From contig JACPAE010000002.1 in NCBI GenBank assembly GCA_016181005.1, positions 123,682 through 187,681 of the forward strand: a stretch of 64,000 nucleotides of DNA, given 5' to 3'. The notes beneath the pieces were generated by a model that ran no database searches, was not told the origin of the DNA, and saw only the letters and a list, made by a program, of their open reading frames with translations. This document shows positions 1 to 8,215 of the stretch, in pieces. The translations under genes and the position numbers were made by a program. Origin of the DNA: Candidatus Aenigmatarchaeota archaeon (GTDB lineage Archaea; Aenigmatarchaeota; Aenigmatarchaeia; CG10238-14; SCSR01). Position 1 is the stretch's first letter; every line of letters starts with the position of its first letter.

Positions 1-1099
1 TTGCATTCAGATCGACATTGCCTGTATTCTTCACGTTTATATCAAATTCTACAAATTCTCCCTGGACAACAGATGCTGTTGGTACTGTGAAGGTTGCGCT
101 TACTGTTTTGAAGGACGGTGAGGCCAAGGCTGTAACTAGGAATTGTAATGAGGTGATTCTTTGGAAAAGGGACAGTCTAGATGTTATGCCATCCAAATCC
201 AACGATTGAGTTATCATTCTCGGATAAGTAATAAGCCTTTGTAGAGCTTCAGCAATTGAAAAGGAATCTGTGATTGAGCGCAAGACGGTTGCTATTCTGA
301 TTGAGATTTCTTCGAATGAAAATGAAGATTGGATGTTTCTTGAAAAGCTGATTATTCTTTGCGAGATTTCTGTGAAATCCATGGCATTTGTCGCTAATCT
401 TACATTGGTCAACAATGTCACTATGTTGTCAGTTAAATCAATGGCCAGAGTCGACGATATATTTGTGATAACGCTTGCCACTGCAGTTATTCTTTCAGTA
501 ATTGAAAGAGACTGGGAAACAGCTCTAATGAATGAGGCTAATCTTTGTGCGGTTTCTGAGAGGTCTATGGATTGGGTGATCTGTACAGCTTCTGTGAGGT
601 CGAATGATTGGGTTATGTTTCTAGGTATCCTCATAAAAGCCTGAATGGATTCTGCCAGATCGATAGACTGGGTTATGCTTCTGGCGAAGGATGCAAGGCG
701 GGTCATGGCATCAGTTATGTCGAGGGATTGGGTGATTTGGAATACACGGGTGGTGAAGGTTGAGATCGAGTCTGCCAGATCGATAGACTGGGTTATCGAA
801 TATAGACGGGTAACGAATGCCATGATGCTGTTTGTCAGGTTTATTGAATTCGTGAGGCTGCGGATGAACGAGACTAGATTTGAGGTTGTTTCTGTAAGAC
901 CTATCTCGATCGTGTTTAGTCTAATATTTGCCAGTAAATAGGTGATATTGTCAGTAATATCAAGAGATTGTGTTACTGAACGTGGAAAAGATTGTAAAGC
1001 AGCTGCAGTTATTCTTTCAGTAATTGAAAGAGACTGGGAAACAGCTCTAATGAATGAGGCTAATCTTTGTGCGGTTTCTGAGAGGTCTATGGATTGGGT
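1..1099 (-). CDS. C-terminal continuation (+1 frame) of the 20-aa repeat surface protein; runs off the window edge
   Basis: Frame open from 1099 to the edge: TQSIDLSETAQRLASFIRAVSQSLSITERIT...ITQSIDLADSISTFTTRVFQ...VVQGEFVEFDINVKNTGNVDLNA (Ig/CARDB-like start). Same repeats as the upstream ORF. Confidence 0.8.
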
Positions 1100-2040
1100 G
1101 AAGATCGATAGACTGGGTTATTTGCGCCAGCCTTGTGGTGAAGGTTGAGATAGAGTCTGCCAGATCGATGGATTGGGTTATGCTTCTGGCGAAGGATGCA
1201 AGGCGGGTCATGGCATCAGTTATGTCGAGGGATTGGGTTATGCTTCTGGCGAAGGATGCAAGGCGGGTTACTGACTCTGCGAGGTCGAATGATTGGGTTA
1301 TTGCCATAACTCTTATTATCAAGGCTTGTGTAGCATCGGTCAGATCGAAAGAATTGGTCAAATAGCGTGTATAAGACGAAATTGATGATATTCGATCGGC
1401 TACAGTAATTGAAAGAGTACTAGTTCGACTGATAAGAGGTACAATTACTGTATTTGTAATTCGCTCTGTCAAGCTGAACGACTGGGTTATGCTTCTGGCG
1501 AAGGATGCAAGGCGGGTTACTGACTCTGCGAGGTCGAATGATTGGGTGATTTGGAATACACGGGTGGTGAAGGTTGAGATCGAGTCTGCCAGATCGATAG
1601 ACTGGGTTATTTGCGCCAGCCTGATAGCGAATGTAGTTACGGTTTCTGCGAGGTCGAACGCCTGGGTAATTTGGCGTATGTATGAAGAGAGTGCTGCTAT
1701 ACGTTCTGTCAAATCAATCGACTGGGTCGTTTGGCGCAGGTACATGATTAGGGAGCTCATTGTCTCTGATAAATCTAACCCATTAACCGCATTTCTTATA
1801 TTTATAAAAATAGACCCCACTCTGTCCGTGGTTAAAAAAGAAGCGGTGCTAGTTCTTCCTACAATAGCTGATCTCTGATTGGGTGCAGTTAAAGTGAATG
1901 AGCTTGTTGATGCTCTGGTCAAGGCTTGTATAGACTCTCGTGTTTCCGATAAATCCAATCCGTTTGTTAGCCTTCTGTTGAAAGATATAAGTGCTGGTGA
2001 ATTTGGTGTTAATGTTATGGCATTGGTTGCAGTTCTTTTT
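130..2040 (-). repeat. Array of ~30 degenerate 60-bp (20-aa) coding repeats, several near-identical at DNA level
   Basis: Recurring blocks such as tgggttatgcttctggcgaaggatgcaaggcggg near 668, 1174, 1234 and 1483. Confidence 0.9.
481..1101. repeat. Exact 99-bp direct repeat (481-579 and 1003-1101)
   Basis: ctgcagttattctttcag...ctatggattgggtga is identical in both copies. Confidence 0.9.
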
Positions 2041-2660
2041 TCTGTTGCCCCAGCTGGCGTATAGTCTACAGTGACATTAAACCAGTCTATACGGCAACCG
2101 TCGGTTGATTCAAACAGTTCTCCTGCCGACATTACAGAAAGATTACCAGATGCATCAATAATATTTAGGGCTTGGGCATTGGTGGTGAAATTCATCATTC
2201 GTGTAACTTCTGTTTCAGTCGTATCTGTTGTTTGAGTCCACGCACCATTAGTGAAATTGGCGACTAGATTCTGGCATTCTTCATTATTTGTCGTCTGGGG
2301 GAATTCTTGCTGCTCAATATAAACAGCTATCCAGTTTATGGTGCTCGGAGTTTCGGCAATCGTGAAATTGGCTCTCAGAAAAGTTTCGTCGGCGGTTGAT
2401 ACGGTTTCACAGTAAATGTTATCTGAAGCACCCAAGCCTGTATAGCATGCCCCACTTCCATTGACACCATCCCATCCTGTTGTGAATGCAGGAGGAATTG
2501 TCATAGCTGTGCTATTTTTGTTGAAGAGATTTTGATTTATTACAGCAGATTTGCCATTCGCAGTGGAAAAGTTATAAACTGCTATAGCTGCTTCAACATC
2601 ATCAACGAAGGCAAAGACAGAAAGTAAGGCAATCATTATAATGAAAATTAATCCTTTCAT
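1047..2660 (-). CDS. Secreted Ser/Thr-rich protein with 20-aa repeats (N-terminal part, frameshifted at ~1100)
   Basis: ATG at 2660 overlaps the upstream stop (ATGA); signal peptide MKGLIFIIMIALLSVFAFVDDVEA; Cys-containing N-domain, then repeats such as ITQSFDLAESVTRLASFARS. Confidence 0.85.
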   Translation of the reverse strand: MKGLIFIIMIALLSVFAFVDDVEAAIAVYNFSTANGKSAVINQNLFNKNSTAMTIPPAFTTGWDGVNGSGACYTGLGASDNIYCETVSTADETFLRANFTIAETPSTINWIAVYIEQQEFPQTTNNEECQNLVANFTNGAWTQTTDTTETEVTRMMNFTTNAQALNIIDASGNLSVMSAGELFESTDGCRIDWFNVTVDYTPAGATEKRTATNAITLTPNSPALISFNRRLTNGLDLSETRESIQALTRASTSSFTLTAPNQRSAIVGRTSTASFLTTDRVGSIFINIRNAVNGLDLSETMSSLIMYLRQTTQSIDLTERIAALSSYIRQITQAFDLAETVTTFAIRLAQITQSIDLADSISTFTTRVFQITQSFDLAESVTRLASFARSITQSFSLTERITNTVIVPLISRTSTLSITVADRISSISSYTRYLTNSFDLTDATQALIIRVMAITQSFDLAESVTRLASFARSITQSLDITDAMTRLASFARSITQSIDLADSISTFTTRLAQITQSIDLHPIHRPLRNRTKISLIH

Positions 2661-2905
2661 TTTCTCAGCCTCTCCCACTCTTTTTTCAAATAGCAGAGGG
2701 TCGCGGCGCCTACTCTCCGCCTGTAGACAAGACCAGCACCTTCGAGCCAAAGGATGTGCTTGGTGGCCGTCTGCCTGTGCGCATCCGTTACTTTAGCCAA
2801 ATCCTCTATCGTAAGCCCTTCTGGGTGTTCTTTCAAAACTTCTACAAGTTTGTTCCTAAAATTCTCGCCATTATCACCATTACCAGACACTAAAGATATC
2901 ACCAT
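2657..2905 (-). CDS. Winged-HTH DNA-binding protein
   Basis: LVEVLKEHPEGLTIEDLAKVTDAHRQTATKHILWLEGAGLVYRRRVG; translationally coupled to the repeat protein. Confidence 0.8.
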   Translation of the reverse strand: MVISLVSGNGDNGENFRNKLVEVLKEHPEGLTIEDLAKVTDAHRQTATKHILWLEGAGLVYRRRVGAATLCYLKKEWERLRK

Positions 2906-3084
2906 TAATGTACATCATTAATTACTATTTGTTTTGCTTCAACTTAAAGGCTCACAAGGAAGGGAAAAAGGCATTACATGCATTTAATCAGAATAGAAGC
3001 TCAAGGCTTCCTTTGAGATAATTGATAAACTACTTTCCATAAGGGGTTAAGAATACTTTTAGTCAAGGGAATCAAATAATTATC

Positions 3085-5445
3085 ATGGGTAAGAGATTAA
3101 CCTTATATGTCTTTTGCAACATGCTTTTATTGGTTATAGTACCAAGCCTGGCTCAGAGCTATTCGCTTACTTACGAGACAGCTGGATTGGATACCTGGAA
3201 CGATAGCACACAGGTTGCAAATGGAGTCACGAAAGCTCAAGTTACTCTTCCATTTTCATTTAATTTCTTCGGCACCAGCTATTCCTCGGTGTGGGTTAAT
3301 GCAAATGGATTTATAGCGCCTGCTGTAGATTTAGGTGCGAATCCAACGATTGGCGAGTCGAATTTTAGAAAATCTAATATGATAGCTGTATTTTGGGGCG
3401 GAAGTTTTGAGGTTTTAAAAAATGAGTATTCCGACAGGGTAGTGTTTACATTTAATGGAAATTACCTAGGATGGCCAGTCACTGCGCAGGCTGTATTTTA
3501 CAGTAATGGGGATTTTAGATTACGCTATAGTAGTATTAACCAGGTTGTTGTTGATAATAATGCTTCGATTATCACGGGGGTCTCTAAAGGAGACGATGCA
3601 AGTTTTTATCATAATGACTGGGGTACAACTACACAAACTGCGTATTATAAGTATGTACCGCCTGCTGCTGCTACCACAACTACCGTTGCAGCTAAACTCG
3701 CCCCACAGATAATAAATTTCACTTCAACAGCGAATGTAACTAAAAGATCGCAAACAGTGGACTTTCTTTTCGGAATAAGCGATGATGTTTCAGTCGACCC
3801 CAACGCTATATCGGTATCCATAGTTCCAAAAGAGGGAAAGAGAGTTCTAATTGGTAGCCCTGTCCTTCGTTCAGGCAACGAAAAAACAGGCGTTTACAAT
3901 CTAACTTGGAAAGTGCCGAACAATATCACTCAAGGCCTGTACGATATAAAAGTTTTTGTCTGTGATAGTGCAGGGAACTGCAACATAGCCGCGACTGCTG
4001 GAAATCTGACTATTAATGCCACCCTATACTTCAACCTTAATGATAAATTGAAGGACTCCTACAACCAGACTGAAGAGATTAAGCTGAGTGGTGAGGTGGT
4101 TGACTTCTTGAACAACAGGGTGAAAGCAAATGTGACTTTGGATTTAATTTATCCTGGCGGTAAATACACTTTTAAAAACGCAACTGAATTCGGGAGGTAT
4201 GTGCTGAACTACAGAACAAGCCTGCTGGACGTGTTGGGAAATTGGACGATAGAGCTGAAAGCAACTGATGCTGATGGCAATGAAGGCACTCTTGTCAAGA
4301 AAGTAACCTTAAGGCAACCGCAGGCATTCTTTTACTACAGCGTAGTCTTCCTTTCACCTGTATCTGACGCAACTTATTACCGTGGCGAAAATGCCAGGAT
4401 TTCAGTAAAAGTCCTAGACCTTGACAAGCCTGTGGGGGATGCTGTAGTGAATTTAAAGCTGCCTACGGGCGAGTTGATACAGTTGAATGAAGTCTCTCCT
4501 GGGACAGGAATTTATCAGTCTTCGTATAGAATAAAATTCAAAGATCAGACAGGCAATTGGACTCTAGGCGTGGAAGGATTAAAGCAGACTGAAGCAGGAT
4601 TGTTTGCTGGATCGAATAGCATAGGAATAAATGTCAGGCATGTGGATTTGATAATTGATATTCTTTCGCCCGATAAAAATCGCTTTACAATAAATGAAAA
4701 TGTAAAAATTAAAGTAAAAGTTACTTATCCTGATAACTCGCTAGCCTCTGGAATAACTCTAAATGCAACTCCAGTGAAGAAAGCTTTGGCTTTAGTGGAA
4801 ACTGAACCGGGTATCTATGAAGCAAAATACAGATTCTCCCAGCAGGATGAAGGCAGACGCTCTCTGAGAATATTTGCATTGGATCCTTACGATAACTTGG
4901 CTTTTGTTGAAAAATCTATTTTTGTCGTACAGCCGACTATAGTCGATTTTCTTATGCAGCTGTGGTATATAACAGTCCCGGGCATTGGAGTGGTGCTGTA
5001 TTTAGTTGCGCGCACAAAATCTCCGACTATCATGCTGAAATATTACAATCAAAGGCTGAAAAATCTGGAGAATCTCAAGAAATCCACACAGGAAAAATAT
5101 TTTGTGGGGGACGGCATAGACGAGCCAACATTCAGAAGATTGGTGCAGGATACTGATAGGAAGGTTATAGAAGTCAAAACAAAAATAAAAGATTTGGAAG
5201 CTAGAATAGTGCAGCAAAAACAGACAGGTATTCCGGAGATTAAGGCTGTAGGAACCACTTTCTCGAATCTTAATCAGAGCTTGGAAAAGTTGGTGAGAGT
5301 GTACAAAAGGGGGGTAAAGGATGCAGCTGGAAAAAAGGAGCAAAAGAAAGAAGAGAAAGCTGATGAAAAGGCAGCGGAAAAATCAACTAGACAAAAAGGG
5401 AAAGAAACAGCTGATTTAAAGTCAAGCAAGAAGAAGGAAAGCTAA
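3085..5445 (+). CDS. Large cell-surface protein (NIDO-like N-domain, tandem Ig-like domains, C-terminal TM and coiled-coil tail)
   Basis: Signal peptide; LPFSFNFFGTSYSSVWVNANGFI; repeated GxY/GNWT beta motifs; TM LWYITVPGIGVVLYLVA. Confidence 0.8.
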   Translation: MGKRLTLYVFCNMLLLVIVPSLAQSYSLTYETAGLDTWNDSTQVANGVTKAQVTLPFSFNFFGTSYSSVWVNANGFIAPAVDLGANPTIGESNFRKSNMIAVFWGGSFEVLKNEYSDRVVFTFNGNYLGWPVTAQAVFYSNGDFRLRYSSINQVVVDNNASIITGVSKGDDASFYHNDWGTTTQTAYYKYVPPAAATTTTVAAKLAPQIINFTSTANVTKRSQTVDFLFGISDDVSVDPNAISVSIVPKEGKRVLIGSPVLRSGNEKTGVYNLTWKVPNNITQGLYDIKVFVCDSAGNCNIAATAGNLTINATLYFNLNDKLKDSYNQTEEIKLSGEVVDFLNNRVKANVTLDLIYPGGKYTFKNATEFGRYVLNYRTSLLDVLGNWTIELKATDADGNEGTLVKKVTLRQPQAFFYYSVVFLSPVSDATYYRGENARISVKVLDLDKPVGDAVVNLKLPTGELIQLNEVSPGTGIYQSSYRIKFKDQTGNWTLGVEGLKQTEAGLFAGSNSIGINVRHVDLIIDILSPDKNRFTINENVKIKVKVTYPDNSLASGITLNATPVKKALALVETEPGIYEAKYRFSQQDEGRRSLRIFALDPYDNLAFVEKSIFVVQPTIVDFLMQLWYITVPGIGVVLYLVARTKSPTIMLKYYNQRLKNLENLKKSTQEKYFVGDGIDEPTFRRLVQDTDRKVIEVKTKIKDLEARIVQQKQTGIPEIKAVGTTFSNLNQSLEKLVRVYKRGVKDAAGKKEQKKEEKADEKAAEKSTRQKGKETADLKSSKKKES

Positions 5446-5456
5446 ACGGTGATTAA

Positions 5457-6224
5457 TTGGAAGAAAAGAAAAAATCAGAAGGGGGAAAAACAAACAGAGT
5501 TAGAATCGGTGTACAAGGCTTTGATGAGTTAATTGAAGGCGGTGTTGAAAGAAATAGCGTTATTTTGGTGGCGGGTGGTACTGGAACCGGAAAAACAAGT
5601 TTCTGCACGCAATTTCTCCATTATGGAGCGCATGAAGGTGGAAAAGGTCTTTACATAAGCTTTGAAGAACCTCCTGAGCAAGTGTTGAGGCACGCCAATT
5701 CATTCTGCCAAGACTGCAAAGTACATCCTGAGAAGAGCAACATAATATTCCAAAAAGTTGATGTTTACAGGATAGCTAAAGCGGTTGAGGCTTCTATACT
5801 GAAGGCCAAGGGCGAATTGCTTATAGATGTCAAAGACCTGCCGGTAATGATTCCGCATGATTTCAAGCCTGATAGAATCGTCGTAGATTCCCTTCCTGCA
5901 TTGTCAGCTGTGTTCAAGGAAGAAGAATATAGGTATTTTGTTTTCAAATTCTTCTCGTTCCTCAAGTCGACAGGTGCGACAGTCCTTGCAATAACCGAAA
6001 CCACACAAGACCCTAGTGAATTCAGCAGAAGTGGTATAGAAGAATTTCTTGGCGATGGTGTAGTTGTTCTATATAATATCAAGCAGGGAGACATCAGGGC
6101 AAGGGCTGTAGAAATTTTAAAGATGAGGGGAACTAGGCACAAGGAAAAGATTGTGCCGTTTAAGATAACGGACAAGGGCATTGAAGTCTATCCAGACCAG
6201 AGCATATTGATGCAAGTAGAGTAA
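5457..6224 (+). CDS. KaiC-like (RecA superfamily) ATPase, single domain
   Basis: GFDELIEGG, Walker A GGTGTGKT, YISFEE, IVVDS, EILKMRG. Confidence 0.9.
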   Translation: MEEKKKSEGGKTNRVRIGVQGFDELIEGGVERNSVILVAGGTGTGKTSFCTQFLHYGAHEGGKGLYISFEEPPEQVLRHANSFCQDCKVHPEKSNIIFQKVDVYRIAKAVEASILKAKGELLIDVKDLPVMIPHDFKPDRIVVDSLPALSAVFKEEEYRYFVFKFFSFLKSTGATVLAITETTQDPSEFSRSGIEEFLGDGVVVLYNIKQGDIRARAVEILKMRGTRHKEKIVPFKITDKGIEVYPDQSILMQVE

Positions 6225-6515
6225 TCATGCGCTTTCTCTGACGCCAATTCCCTGGACTACATTGACCTGGAATGTCTGAGTCTCCCTGGTCTGGTTTTGC
6301 GTCGCGTTTTCAACAGTGGTGATGTTTGTCTCTACTTTTTCTTGAATATCGGGCTGTACTGTTGAAGGTGAAGGCTGCCGAATAACTGTGGATTCTATAG
6401 ATTCTGCATTTCCTTGCGTTGCATTATCTGGGCTTGGCAGTGCATTTTCTTGGAGTGAAGAACAACCGCTAAGCAGAATTATCACGAAAATAAACAAACT
6501 AAATTCAAATCTCAT
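6225..6515 (-). CDS. Small lipoprotein with low-complexity linker
   Basis: Lipobox LLSGC; S/T/Q/P-rich linker; C-terminal FQVNVVQGIGVRESA. Confidence 0.75.
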   Translation of the reverse strand: MRFEFSLFIFVIILLSGCSSLQENALPSPDNATQGNAESIESTVIRQPSPSTVQPDIQEKVETNITTVENATQNQTRETQTFQVNVVQGIGVRESA

Positions 6516-6554
6516 ATTATGAATAATATCTTTGTTTTAAAAGCTTTGAAAAGT

Positions 6555-7184
6555 TTAGACTACCCAGATGAACCAAGTGACATTGATCTTGTCATTTATC
6601 TGCAATGTCGCAGTTGTGAACGTATTCTGGGCGAAGAATATCTCTCTTGTCTGGTTTACAGTCGTAGTATTGAAAAGGCCAGTTGCGTTGACGTCAAGCG
6701 CCCCGCTGCCCGTATTTGTGAATTCAGCGGTAACTGACCAGTTACCCACTGCAGATGCCGCGCCTGTCTGGTTCAATCTCACAGTCCCTGATGCCCTGGC
6801 CAAACCCGAATGATCATATTCACCGCATAAAAATGTATTTGCATGGTCTTGAGCTGGTATGCATTGGTTGCCGCCTGGTCCGCCGCTTTTGTTGGAAAGT
6901 GCTATGTCATCGATTGGGCTCAAAGTTTCTCCTTGGAATGTCAATGCAGCCAATGTCGCATTCATGCCATCATCATTGAAGAGATTAGGATTGCAATCCC
7001 ATTGCGTCCATTCCGTTTCGCCCGCTCTTTGGATGTAAGTGCACTGGACAGCATGATATTCTAATGCCGTTGTACCGTCTCCTTCAGTTCCCACAGATCC
7101 CAATGGAGCAGAGAATAGTGCAAAACCCGCTACAAAAGATACTATAGCAACCACTGCAATTAGAGGTAAAAATTGAAAGTTCAT
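6555..7184 (-). CDS. Exported beta-rich protein resembling phage tail-collar/fibre-associated proteins
   Basis: N-terminal hydrophobic segment; pattern NLFNDDG..IAL..GE..GLARA..EFT..V..GLFN..F..F....L...DKINVTW recalled from phage tail-module proteins. Confidence 0.6.
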   Translation of the reverse strand: MNFQFLPLIAVVAIVSFVAGFALFSAPLGSVGTEGDGTTALEYHAVQCTYIQRAGETEWTQWDCNPNLFNDDGMNATLAALTFQGETLSPIDDIALSNKSGGPGGNQCIPAQDHANTFLCGEYDHSGLARASGTVRLNQTGAASAVGNWSVTAEFTNTGSGALDVNATGLFNTTTVNQTREIFFAQNTFTTATLQINDKINVTWFIWVV

Positions 7185-7238
7185 CTTCCCTATCTTTAAT
7201 TTAATTTCCTCCCTTAAATACTTTTGGGGAGTTTGAAC

Positions 7239-7754
7239 CTAGTTCTGCCTGAATTCTATGTACGCGACCAAAAGCCCCAACGGTATGCTGGACGGGTCGT
7301 TTGAGAGCAGAAATGCCACCAAAGCGAAAAGCGCTCCTATTCCCAGCGACTTGGCCAACCTTATCCAGATGTTGGGCTTTGAGAATTGCACTTTCGGTGC
7401 AGCTATCTTCATTTTTGTTTGCCTCCTTTCAATTATAATGATTACAGCAGTTAAAACTATTGTGAATGCGTAGAGAGACCAGAAAAATATGGTATTCATT
7501 GCCTTCAAATCGCCGAACCCCTGCGCATAATTGGGAAGATTAACAAGGCCGAACAGGTACGGGCTTGTGGCCCTTGTCACTTTCACTGTCACAGCCTGAC
7601 CCACGCCTATCACTTCGCCGAATCCGCTTTTGCTATTGTTTGGAGTTTCCCTAACAGCCGTTAGAGTGTCCTCAAGCGAGTTTATGACATTCGCATAGAT
7701 AAGAACAAGGAGAATGAAAATCACAGGAACCGCAATCAATTTTTGATATCTCAT
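7239..7754 (-). CDS. Multi-pass membrane protein, unknown function
   Basis: About four hydrophobic segments; loop FGEVIGVGQAVTVKVTR. Confidence 0.7.
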   Translation of the reverse strand: MRYQKLIAVPVIFILLVLIYANVINSLEDTLTAVRETPNNSKSGFGEVIGVGQAVTVKVTRATSPYLFGLVNLPNYAQGFGDLKAMNTIFFWSLYAFTIVLTAVIIIIERRQTKMKIAAPKVQFSKPNIWIRLAKSLGIGALFALVAFLLSNDPSSIPLGLLVAYIEFRQN

Positions 7755-7828: not shown

Positions 7829-8215
7829 ATGCTACAAGACCCTTTGGCAGATGCGCTGACCGCAATAAAGAACGGCGACAGGATAGGGAAGAAGGAATGC
7901 ATAGTCAAATCTTCAAAGCTGCTTGAAAGCATCCTTAAGGTAATGCAGGAGAACAACTACATCGGACAGTTCGAAAGGATGGAGGACGGCAGAGGCGGTA
8001 AGTTCAAGATTGAATTGAAGGGGAGTGTCATAGACACGAAAGTTGTAAAGCCGAGATTTTCAGTTGCGAGGGACGAGTTCGAAAAATGGGAGAAGAGGTA
8101 CTTGCCGTCCAGGCAGATGGGTCTGCTGATTTTGTCGACCTCTAAAGGCGTGATGGCGCACAGCAAGGCAAAGGAGCTGAACATAGGCGGAAGACTGCTT
8201 TCTTATGTTTACTGA
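7829..8215 (+). CDS. rps8: 30S ribosomal protein S8
   Basis: MLQDPLADALTAIKN...GLLILSTSKGVM...IGGRLLSYVY. Confidence 0.97.
   Translation: MLQDPLADALTAIKNGDRIGKKECIVKSSKLLESILKVMQENNYIGQFERMEDGRGGKFKIELKGSVIDTKVVKPRFSVARDEFEKWEKRYLPSRQMGLLILSTSKGVMAHSKAKELNIGGRLLSYVY

Follow-up and report, generated by a model that had tools for sequence, protein, structure and literature searches.

A conserved Aenigmatarchaeota surface-protein locus with a 20-residue repeat array and a small protein akin to viral fibres: a possible cellular version of a phage chain-like fibre

The window considered here, the whole stretch of 64,000 nucleotides that was analysed, comprises positions 123,682–187,681 of contig C1 in the 740 kb, five-contig and 92% complete genome of a Candidatus Aenigmatarchaeota archaeon, a member of the DPANN archaea. 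At its beginning lie genes for a giant surface protein with an array of 20-amino acid (aa) units, for a 209-aa protein whose fold and family are shared with viral fibre and neck parts, and for a 171-aa membrane protein, and the three keep company in related genomes. The reading preferred, tentatively and as something just short of an even call, is that the locus is a conserved surface module of Aenigmatarchaeota and a cellular version of the chain-like fibres of certain phages, in which small 'beads' are carried by an extended 'rope'. The setting is ordinary chromosome, a core site beside a ribosomal protein operon: the operon S8-L6-L32e-L19e-L18-S5 begins at 7829, and genes for cysteinyl-tRNA synthetase, primase and PCNA lie upstream of the window. 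An earlier note on this DNA, made from the sequence alone, remarked on the lack of capsid, terminase and integrase genes nearby, and a PHROGs scan of 46 open reading frames (ORFs), ~37 kb around the locus, bears this out for those three and finds no portal gene either. The features on which the argument turns are the following.

1..2660, minus strand: giant surface protein, the candidate 'rope' (its N-terminal two thirds), from ORFs, reading frames and intact orthologues
2031..2660, minus strand: signal-peptide-like N-terminus and globular domain of ~185 aa of that protein, from the translation
128..2030, minus strand: array of ~32 units of 20 aa, from a repeat hidden Markov model (HMM)
1095..1104, minus strand: +1 frameshift at a repeat junction, from the reading frames and the contigs of four runs
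6555..7184, minus strand: 209-aa secreted or anchored protein, the candidate 'bead', from an AlphaFold2 (AF2) model and fold matches
7239..7754, minus strand: 171-aa membrane protein with 3–4 transmembrane (TM) helices, from an alignment

The repeat gene starts at 2660 on the minus strand and has ~1,500 codons. Its signal-peptide-like N-terminus, which accords with the secreted protein proposed in the earlier note, is followed by the ~185-aa domain, rich in N-x-S/T sites and matching no Pfam or NCBIfam family, which is common only to L005, L012 and L010 (11 orthologues have the N-terminus present; L007 is without it). The proposal of a protein running from 2660 off the end of the window needs amendment in other respects, as it is not one open frame and continues for 1,840 bases past the window edge to a C-terminal anchor. 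The C-terminus consists of two NPCBM_assoc/NEW3 domains (PF10633, 2.1e-20), a TM helix and a basic tail, so that the protein has the domains, the signal peptide and the C-terminal TM anchor by which an NPCBM_assoc surface protein is recognised; if it is anchored at that end, the N-terminal domain is its distal tip. The break in the frame is a +1 shift at ~1095–1100, where a partial unit is duplicated, and the second frame after it has 985 codons and extends to 1,840 bases before the window start. Is the shift a property of the organism? Four public groundwater metagenome runs, from one study and perhaps the origin of this DNA, contain the locus, and their contigs break up between ~510 and ~1593. 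Because no contig of these runs bridges 1101–1104, because alternative joints are present in their contigs (1101 to 1192, 1098 to 1501 and 579 to 687) and because the intact orthologues are proteins of 1,242–1,886 aa, the frameshift is taken as probably an artefact of assembly and the repeat number as approximate.

The ~30 repeats of 20 aa discerned earlier are substantiated: with an HMM made from 22 of the units, 26 copies reach 8 bits or more within ~642 aa, or ~32 unit lengths. With 195 units from the window and orthologues the consensus has R5 (89%), T8 (90%), N/Q9, D12 (78%), L/I13, T14 and E/D15, and the period is strictly 20 aa in all nine of the Aenigmatarchaeota orthologues examined, some of them with a 40-residue super-period. 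When the HMM was run with all filters off against every ORF of 50 aa or more in the genome itself (3,314, of which 2,038 have any domain), only the two pieces of the repeat gene scored, at 31.7 and 31.2 bits, the next ORF being at 7.3 bits. In 12 related loci (1,194 ORFs) it finds the orthologous giant proteins, with 13–36 units each in seven; apart from these just two small ORFs reach 8 bits, at 9.2 and 8.3, and they are taken as chance. An AF2 model from a 16-row alignment gives each unit an 11-residue strand and a 3–4-residue strand, without helices, at low confidence (predicted local distance difference test, pLDDT, 52.5; the other four models 32–37). Such a model fits a rope that depends on a partner for its structure and, equally, a solenoid of unfamiliar type. 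The repeat profile had nothing below E 0.3 in the PDB. N-glycosylation sequons are sparse in the array of the window, 0.6 per 100 aa versus 3.1 elsewhere in the protein, and for eight orthologues the figures are 1.5 versus 2.6, with L028 reversed.

In the 209-aa protein a hydrophobic helix at the N-terminus precedes a beta-sandwich that includes one helix, and there are eight N-x-S/T sites (AF2 model, pLDDT 78.5, predicted template modelling score 0.73). Its close relatives number 18, of 207–238 aa, and their profile reaches 595 cluster representatives at E<=1e-3, nearly all of 180–235 aa. Conserved in the family are four cysteines, an invariant C-terminal strand and 8–12 N-glycosylation sequons, and the N-terminal hydrophobic segment is present in all 12 of the distant members aligned. 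The earlier note likened this protein, from the spacing of its motifs, to small beta-sandwich proteins of phage tails with an added export segment, and wished it compared structurally with phage tail proteins; the comparison upholds the idea. Foldseek against the PDB places the tail of HFTV1 (Haloferax tailed virus 1) first (E 1e-5) and Fiber I of phage GP4 second (E 9e-3). With VIA the best match is again the HFTV1 tail, residues 378–508 of chain BD in PDB 9h4p (Z 10.3, root mean square deviation (rmsd) 2.4 over 130 aa, 23% identity), and is followed by GP4 Fiber I (8jou_a, Z 8.2, rmsd 3.2, 120 aa), A511 gp105 and a phi812 arm segment (8.0 each), the Sf14 whisker/neck chain 9c39_K (6.1), phiKZ gp139 (5.8–6.1) and the Bas63 connector chain 9mt4_M (5.4). 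In the VIA-align ordering of the Foldseek list the top nine rows are phage tail or neck parts and the next, at 4.0, is unrelated. A scan of 48,161 chains made independently of Foldseek has the same two leaders, and seven of its ten top rows are phage tail or neck parts. The pilins of archaeal threads and bundling pili, TasA and chaperone-usher pilins were not among the listed fold matches. Of predicted structures, BFVD yields 43 matches at E<=1e-3, including proteins of haloarchaeal tailed viruses, proteins of lipothrixviruses and annotated tail fibres, and the nearest ESM Atlas clusters are mostly viral (features 0.96; structural template modelling score 0.66–0.72).

At the level of sequence, 33 of 64 members of the wider family match phrog_5417 (best 4.9e-10) over profile positions 12–154 of 156, and through the family profile the 209-aa protein is linked to it transitively. 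A single member of the 64 matches PF23140 (Gp80), at 1.2e-3, the window protein itself not being a match. The bead profile against PDB sequences had one match only, an unrelated chain at E 0.88; Pfam and NCBIfam gave nothing above noise for the 209-, 171- and 96-aa proteins, and a weak CsgH match at E 0.043 in the family searches with the small proteins was disregarded. Together fold and family assign the 209-aa protein to a large family with kinship to viral fibre, neck and baseplate accessory proteins. Do viruses themselves carry a close version? One family member had no tblastn match in 50,697 phage records, nor did a scan of viral contigs with the alignment A1 turn up a relative. With the alignment of the 12 distant members the scan of viral contigs gave three loci, two of which were confirmed by the family HMM. 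At one, L100, an 825-aa ORF lies upstream of the bead homologue, and over the ~200 residues at its end a 20-aa periodicity is weakly visible (score 0.70 at most for lag 20, and below zero for lags 19, 21 and 22), which is taken as a hint only. Separately, bead genes stand in tandem in G148 (contig C26, 276,976–278,101; L028) and in L037, L052, L056 and L064, an arrangement that recalls A1002 with its two bead proteins on one rope.

The third component, the 171-aa protein, has a conserved extracellular loop of ~60 aa that is rich in strands and has invariant G52, V57, R61, Y66, G69, L73, P74 and G81, and in its TM segments the charged residues E109, D153 and E167 are conserved. In the set of 21 non-duplicate related loci (L001–L012 and L027–L035; L025 and L026 repeat L011 and L006) its gene adjoins the bead gene in 18 of the 20 with upstream flank, in 17 on the same strand. 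A homologue of the repeat protein is beside the bead gene in 12 of the 21, in several gene orders. Other genes recur too: one for a winged-helix protein in ten, directly before the repeat gene, and those for a 405-aa NEW3 protein and a MinD/ParA ATPase in nine each. Gene order is permuted among lineages, for instance in L007, L034 and L035, and the set is kept together. A common set of 201 genomes of the phylum was searched with three profiles. Nineteen of them contain the bead; 17 of these 19, and no others, contain the membrane partner; and the repeats occur in 15, of which 14 are within the bead-positive set and the exception is an 85% complete genome. Two genomes of the window's own genus, 92–93% complete, are without bead, partner and repeats. 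One genome, G119, has a repeat ORF of 4,349 codons on a contig other than that of its bead/partner pair, and G082, G124 and G054 have a second repeat protein each. Of the co-occurrence of four genes that the earlier note proposed to look for, that of bead, 171-aa partner and repeat protein is present while the lipoprotein discussed below drops out. As an aside, in L029 (~800–3,800), upstream of a bead-like gene, short ORFs overlap one another on both strands and certain peptide words recur in them, which looks like translation through a CRISPR-type repeat array; that bead-like gene is followed by a 992-aa secreted protein in place of one with 20-aa repeats.

How far does the association extend beyond these relatives? 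The 12 distant family members led to 61 metagenome loci, or 55 once duplicates are removed. Upstream sequence of 600 nucleotides or more is available for 34 of the 55, and 25 of these have a relative of the 171-aa protein, in 23 cases directly upstream of the bead gene and on the same strand. ORFs of at least 300 aa were scanned for periodicity by BLOSUM62 autocorrelation at lags 8–60 with a cut-off of 0.6, and 23 of 126 were flagged. In 20 of the 23 the fundamental period, defined as positive at lags 20, 40 and 60 and negative at 10, 12, 15 and 30, is exactly 20; these include one antisense shadow ORF. Of the 61 loci, 19 have a period-20 ORF, and the share is 16 of 27 among loci of 6 kb or longer. 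As a control, the genome of the window has period 20 in the two repeat-gene pieces only, among 275 ORFs, and a single other ORF there was flagged as periodic, with a period of 58 residues. The divergent arrays have 28–107 units with a loose basic-hydrophobic-T/S-Q core in common, and the HMM from the window matches none of these period-20 ORFs. Since such ORFs recur in divergent loci without an HMM match, the 20-residue period is constant while the sequence of the repeat drifts, and the period travels with the bead. The longest arrays encountered, in L090 (10,552–20,178, ~107 units) and L085 (7,166–16,981, ~89 units), are in ORFs of more than 3,200 codons that are truncated where the contig stops.

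A precedent for a small sandwich protein encoded beside a long repetitive one comes from phages. In two reports (PMC12609058, PMC13730344), GP4 Fiber-1, the whiskers of Bas63 and Sf14, VP1 gp11 and A1002 gp40/gp41 are described as small proteins of one fold, dimers of which are arranged end to end along an extended 'rope'; the whisker and Fiber-1 monomers are described as incomplete sandwiches that a strand of the rope completes (PMC12609058). For A1002 (PMC13730344), 11 dimers are on rope residues 243–468 plus 3–32 and 96–107, over ~300 Å, and from these limits ~20.5–24 rope residues and 27 Å per dimer were computed. The 20-residue unit of the window fits this rope length per dimer. In common with the phage fibres there is also the bead, of ~140–170 residues when mature and with a related beta-sandwich, encoded beside a long and evenly repeated protein. 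The differences are several. The context here is cellular, with no virion genes among the 46 ORFs; the candidate rope has its own signal peptide and C-terminal membrane anchor rather than an attachment to collar or nozzle; the bead has a signal or anchor helix and 8–12 glycosylation sites; the 3–4-TM partner is absent from the two viral loci with a bead homologue; and the arrays are far longer, with 28–107 units against 2–11 dimers in phages. The system may work like a phage chain-like fibre, though it does not belong to the phage system itself. The best structural match, from a virus of archaea, is unlike a free bead in being a domain inside a 953-aa tail protein, a chain that may be the baseplate hub or the fibre protein (PMC12494034).

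Two cellular systems also invite comparison. With the archaeal S-layer-like/NEW3 (COG1470-type) proteins the giant protein shares the signal peptide, NEW3/Ig-like domains, C-terminal TM helix with basic tail and N-glycosylation sites; unlike them it has the long 20-aa array and the constant association with bead and membrane partner, and there is no evidence of lattice formation. In donor-strand systems, such as chaperone-usher pili and the archaeal threads and bundling pili, another polypeptide donates the strand that a sandwich is missing. Here a single long scaffold, rather than the neighbouring subunit, would supply every strand, and the 171-aa protein could be a chaperone-like holder; no usher or chaperone homologue is present. 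Literature searches on chain-like fibres, on the GP4 rope and fibre and on giant surface proteins of DPANN archaea yielded no cellular beads-on-a-rope fibre.

As envisaged, the giant protein would be exported yet stay fixed to the membrane through its C-terminal helix, with the NEW3/Ig-like domains as base, the array of ~30 units of 20 aa as rope and the variable N-terminal domain as a distal, probably adhesive, tip. The 209-aa protein would likewise be exported, heavily N-glycosylated, and docked as dimers on successive repeats by beta-sheet augmentation, so that the number of repeats would set the length of the fibre, ~80 nm if the 27 Å per dimer of A1002 were to apply. Holding or loading of the beads would fall to the 171-aa protein with its conserved extracellular hairpin loop, and the winged-helix protein, the second NEW3 protein and the MinD/ParA ATPase would be conserved accessory genes. 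Its function may be attachment to a host. Generalised to the DPANN archaea, the proposal is that they build membrane-anchored beads-on-a-rope fibres with a ruler of 28 to >100 units, a coat of glycosylated beads and a 4-TM, donor-strand-like loader; that is a real possibility, though one that inclines towards doubt.

Does the array need beads at all? The main rival, one that could well hold though it is more doubted than believed, is that it folds by itself, as the beta-solenoid or serpentine stalk of a giant adhesin or S-layer-like protein, and that the bead and the 171-aa protein form a separate surface complex, for example a glycosylated lectin-like cap or receptor that uses the same envelope pathway and is not threaded. 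Much that weighs against a rope is common ground with this. The strand-turn-strand units of the AF2 model, a long and a short strand in each, are regular enough, low as their confidence is, to be a self-sufficient solenoid, and the polar and charged positions R5, T8, N/Q9, D12 and E/D15 are conserved in the ladder manner typical of solenoids, of which a strict period is equally expected. In L027, L031 and L032 the bead/partner pair is flanked by genes for a helicase and a family-B DNA polymerase, the neighbourhood lacking a repeat gene, and five of the 19 bead-positive genomes (G197, G001, G068, G086 and G121) have no repeat match. Further points count against the rope only. The N-terminal helix of the bead may be an uncleaved membrane anchor, which would hold beads off a long fibre; the top structural match is a domain of a large tail protein not known as a bead, and true beads match at no more than middling levels (Z 8.2, 6.1 and 5.4), a best Z of 7–8 being common according to the fold tool's own note. 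The 209-aa protein of the window matches no Pfam family (E<=0.01) and no PHROG, the phage ORF beside a bead homologue is only weakly periodic and has no match to the window HMM, and since linked genes are gained and lost together and relatives are not independent, the phyletic pattern supports the synteny and does not multiply it. In favour of the rope are counted the fold match of the bead, the link to phrog_5417, the phage precedent, the gene linkage, the phyletic pattern and the divergent period-20 loci, together with an array that has no confident fold of its own and is poor in sequons beside a bead that carries 8–12. The self-folding array is modelled poorly, with the pLDDT values given above, and searches of Pfam and, by profile, of the PDB show no known solenoid family for it. 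It also leaves unexplained why a protein of phage-bead fold keeps company with arrays of 20-residue period across diverged lineages, and why the unit period equals the rope length per dimer of A1002.

Might the genes be neighbours only by chance or through shared regulation of envelope genes, with no physical relation between the products and with a viral-like fold that is just a common beta-sandwich? The middling Z values, which the fold tool describes as common for sandwiches, and the lack of a direct family match for the window protein would suit this. It is nonetheless improbable, as half of the family (33 of 64) matches a viral PHROG at sequence level, the linkage outlasts permutations of gene order, the bead, partner and repeats share one phyletic pattern, and the triad recurs in divergent metagenome loci. 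A further alternative, the model of the earlier note in full, has the filament anchored by single copies of the repeat, one register-matched in the tail of the 96-aa lipoprotein and a weaker one in the loop of the 171-aa protein. That this loop is highly conserved and strand-rich, and so could bind the bead analogously, is to its credit. However, when the repeat HMM was set against the neighbours as that note had recommended, the lipoprotein (best domain −2.6 bits, at residues 37–42 and outside the tail, rank 741 of 2,038) and the 171-aa protein (−2.4 bits, rank 678) were both missed, the 209-aa protein had no repeat domain, and the orthologous neighbours in the 12 related loci were missed as well. 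The lipoprotein has one weak match in the 21 related loci and is found in one of 60 other genomes of the family, on a contig other than that of the bead locus there. It appears to be a lineage-specific small gene outside the module, and its part of the model is largely refuted; the full model is very unlikely. What survives of the fibre interpretation is the phage-like fold of the subunit and its wide co-occurrence with giants of 20-residue period, and what goes is the pair of anchors. To call the module domesticated, as the earlier note did, goes beyond the evidence, which gives no direction of transfer.

Beads on a rope are a recently recognised route by which phages make long, flexible appendages of programmed length, and if the fibre reading is true the locus would be the first cellular counterpart of an architecture known, from virions, only since 2023. 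It would then provide a candidate organ for attaching episymbionts to their hosts and a structure that can be put to the test for giant surface proteins, so far unexplained, of the DPANN archaea, which depend on host contact, as well as a mechanism for a large family, the 595 cluster representatives, now without a function. Whether as the source of the phage module or as a capture from phage, it would have a bearing on how archaea and their viruses exchange modules for surfaces and fibres. Should the array instead prove a solenoid, it would still be new, and useful for annotation, that three genes form a conserved set, that the period is strictly 20 residues and that the small protein has viral kin.

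Other genes at or near the locus are these.

2657..2905, minus strand: 82-aa winged-helix (ArsR/MarR-like) protein (Pfam MarR 3e-5, NCBIfam ArsR/SmtB 1e-7)
3085–6224, plus strand: 786-aa secreted protein, then a KaiC-like ATPase (MG2/Ig-like matches; Pfam 3e-54)
6225–6515, minus strand: 96-aa lipoprotein-like ORF with a lipobox-like LSGC
G000 contig C1 119,639–121,840 (L036 11642–13840), 1.8–4.0 kb before the window: 405-aa NEW3 protein and MinD/ParA ATPase

The stop of the winged-helix gene falls within the start of the repeat gene, so the two probably share a transcript. The 405-aa NEW3 surface protein (PF10633 at 3.2e-11) has a C-terminal anchor of its own and is encoded directly downstream of the giant gene; after it comes the gene for the 313-aa MinD/ParA P-loop ATPase with its ParA/CbiA domain (PF10609 7.4e-23, PF01656 6.7e-18), which has a KGGxGK deviant Walker A motif at its N-terminus and a long charged tail. 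Between the bead and winged-helix genes, in the window and in L004, sits the pair made up of the 786-aa secreted protein, with MG2/Ig-like matches, a C-terminal TM helix and a long K/E-rich tail, and a single-domain KaiC-like ATPase. A weaker version of the pair is in L007, and it looks like a separate conserved two-gene module. Elsewhere in the same genome (G000 contig C5, 37,245–41,066, plus strand) there is another giant ORF, of 1,274 aa, with an internal period of 58 residues.

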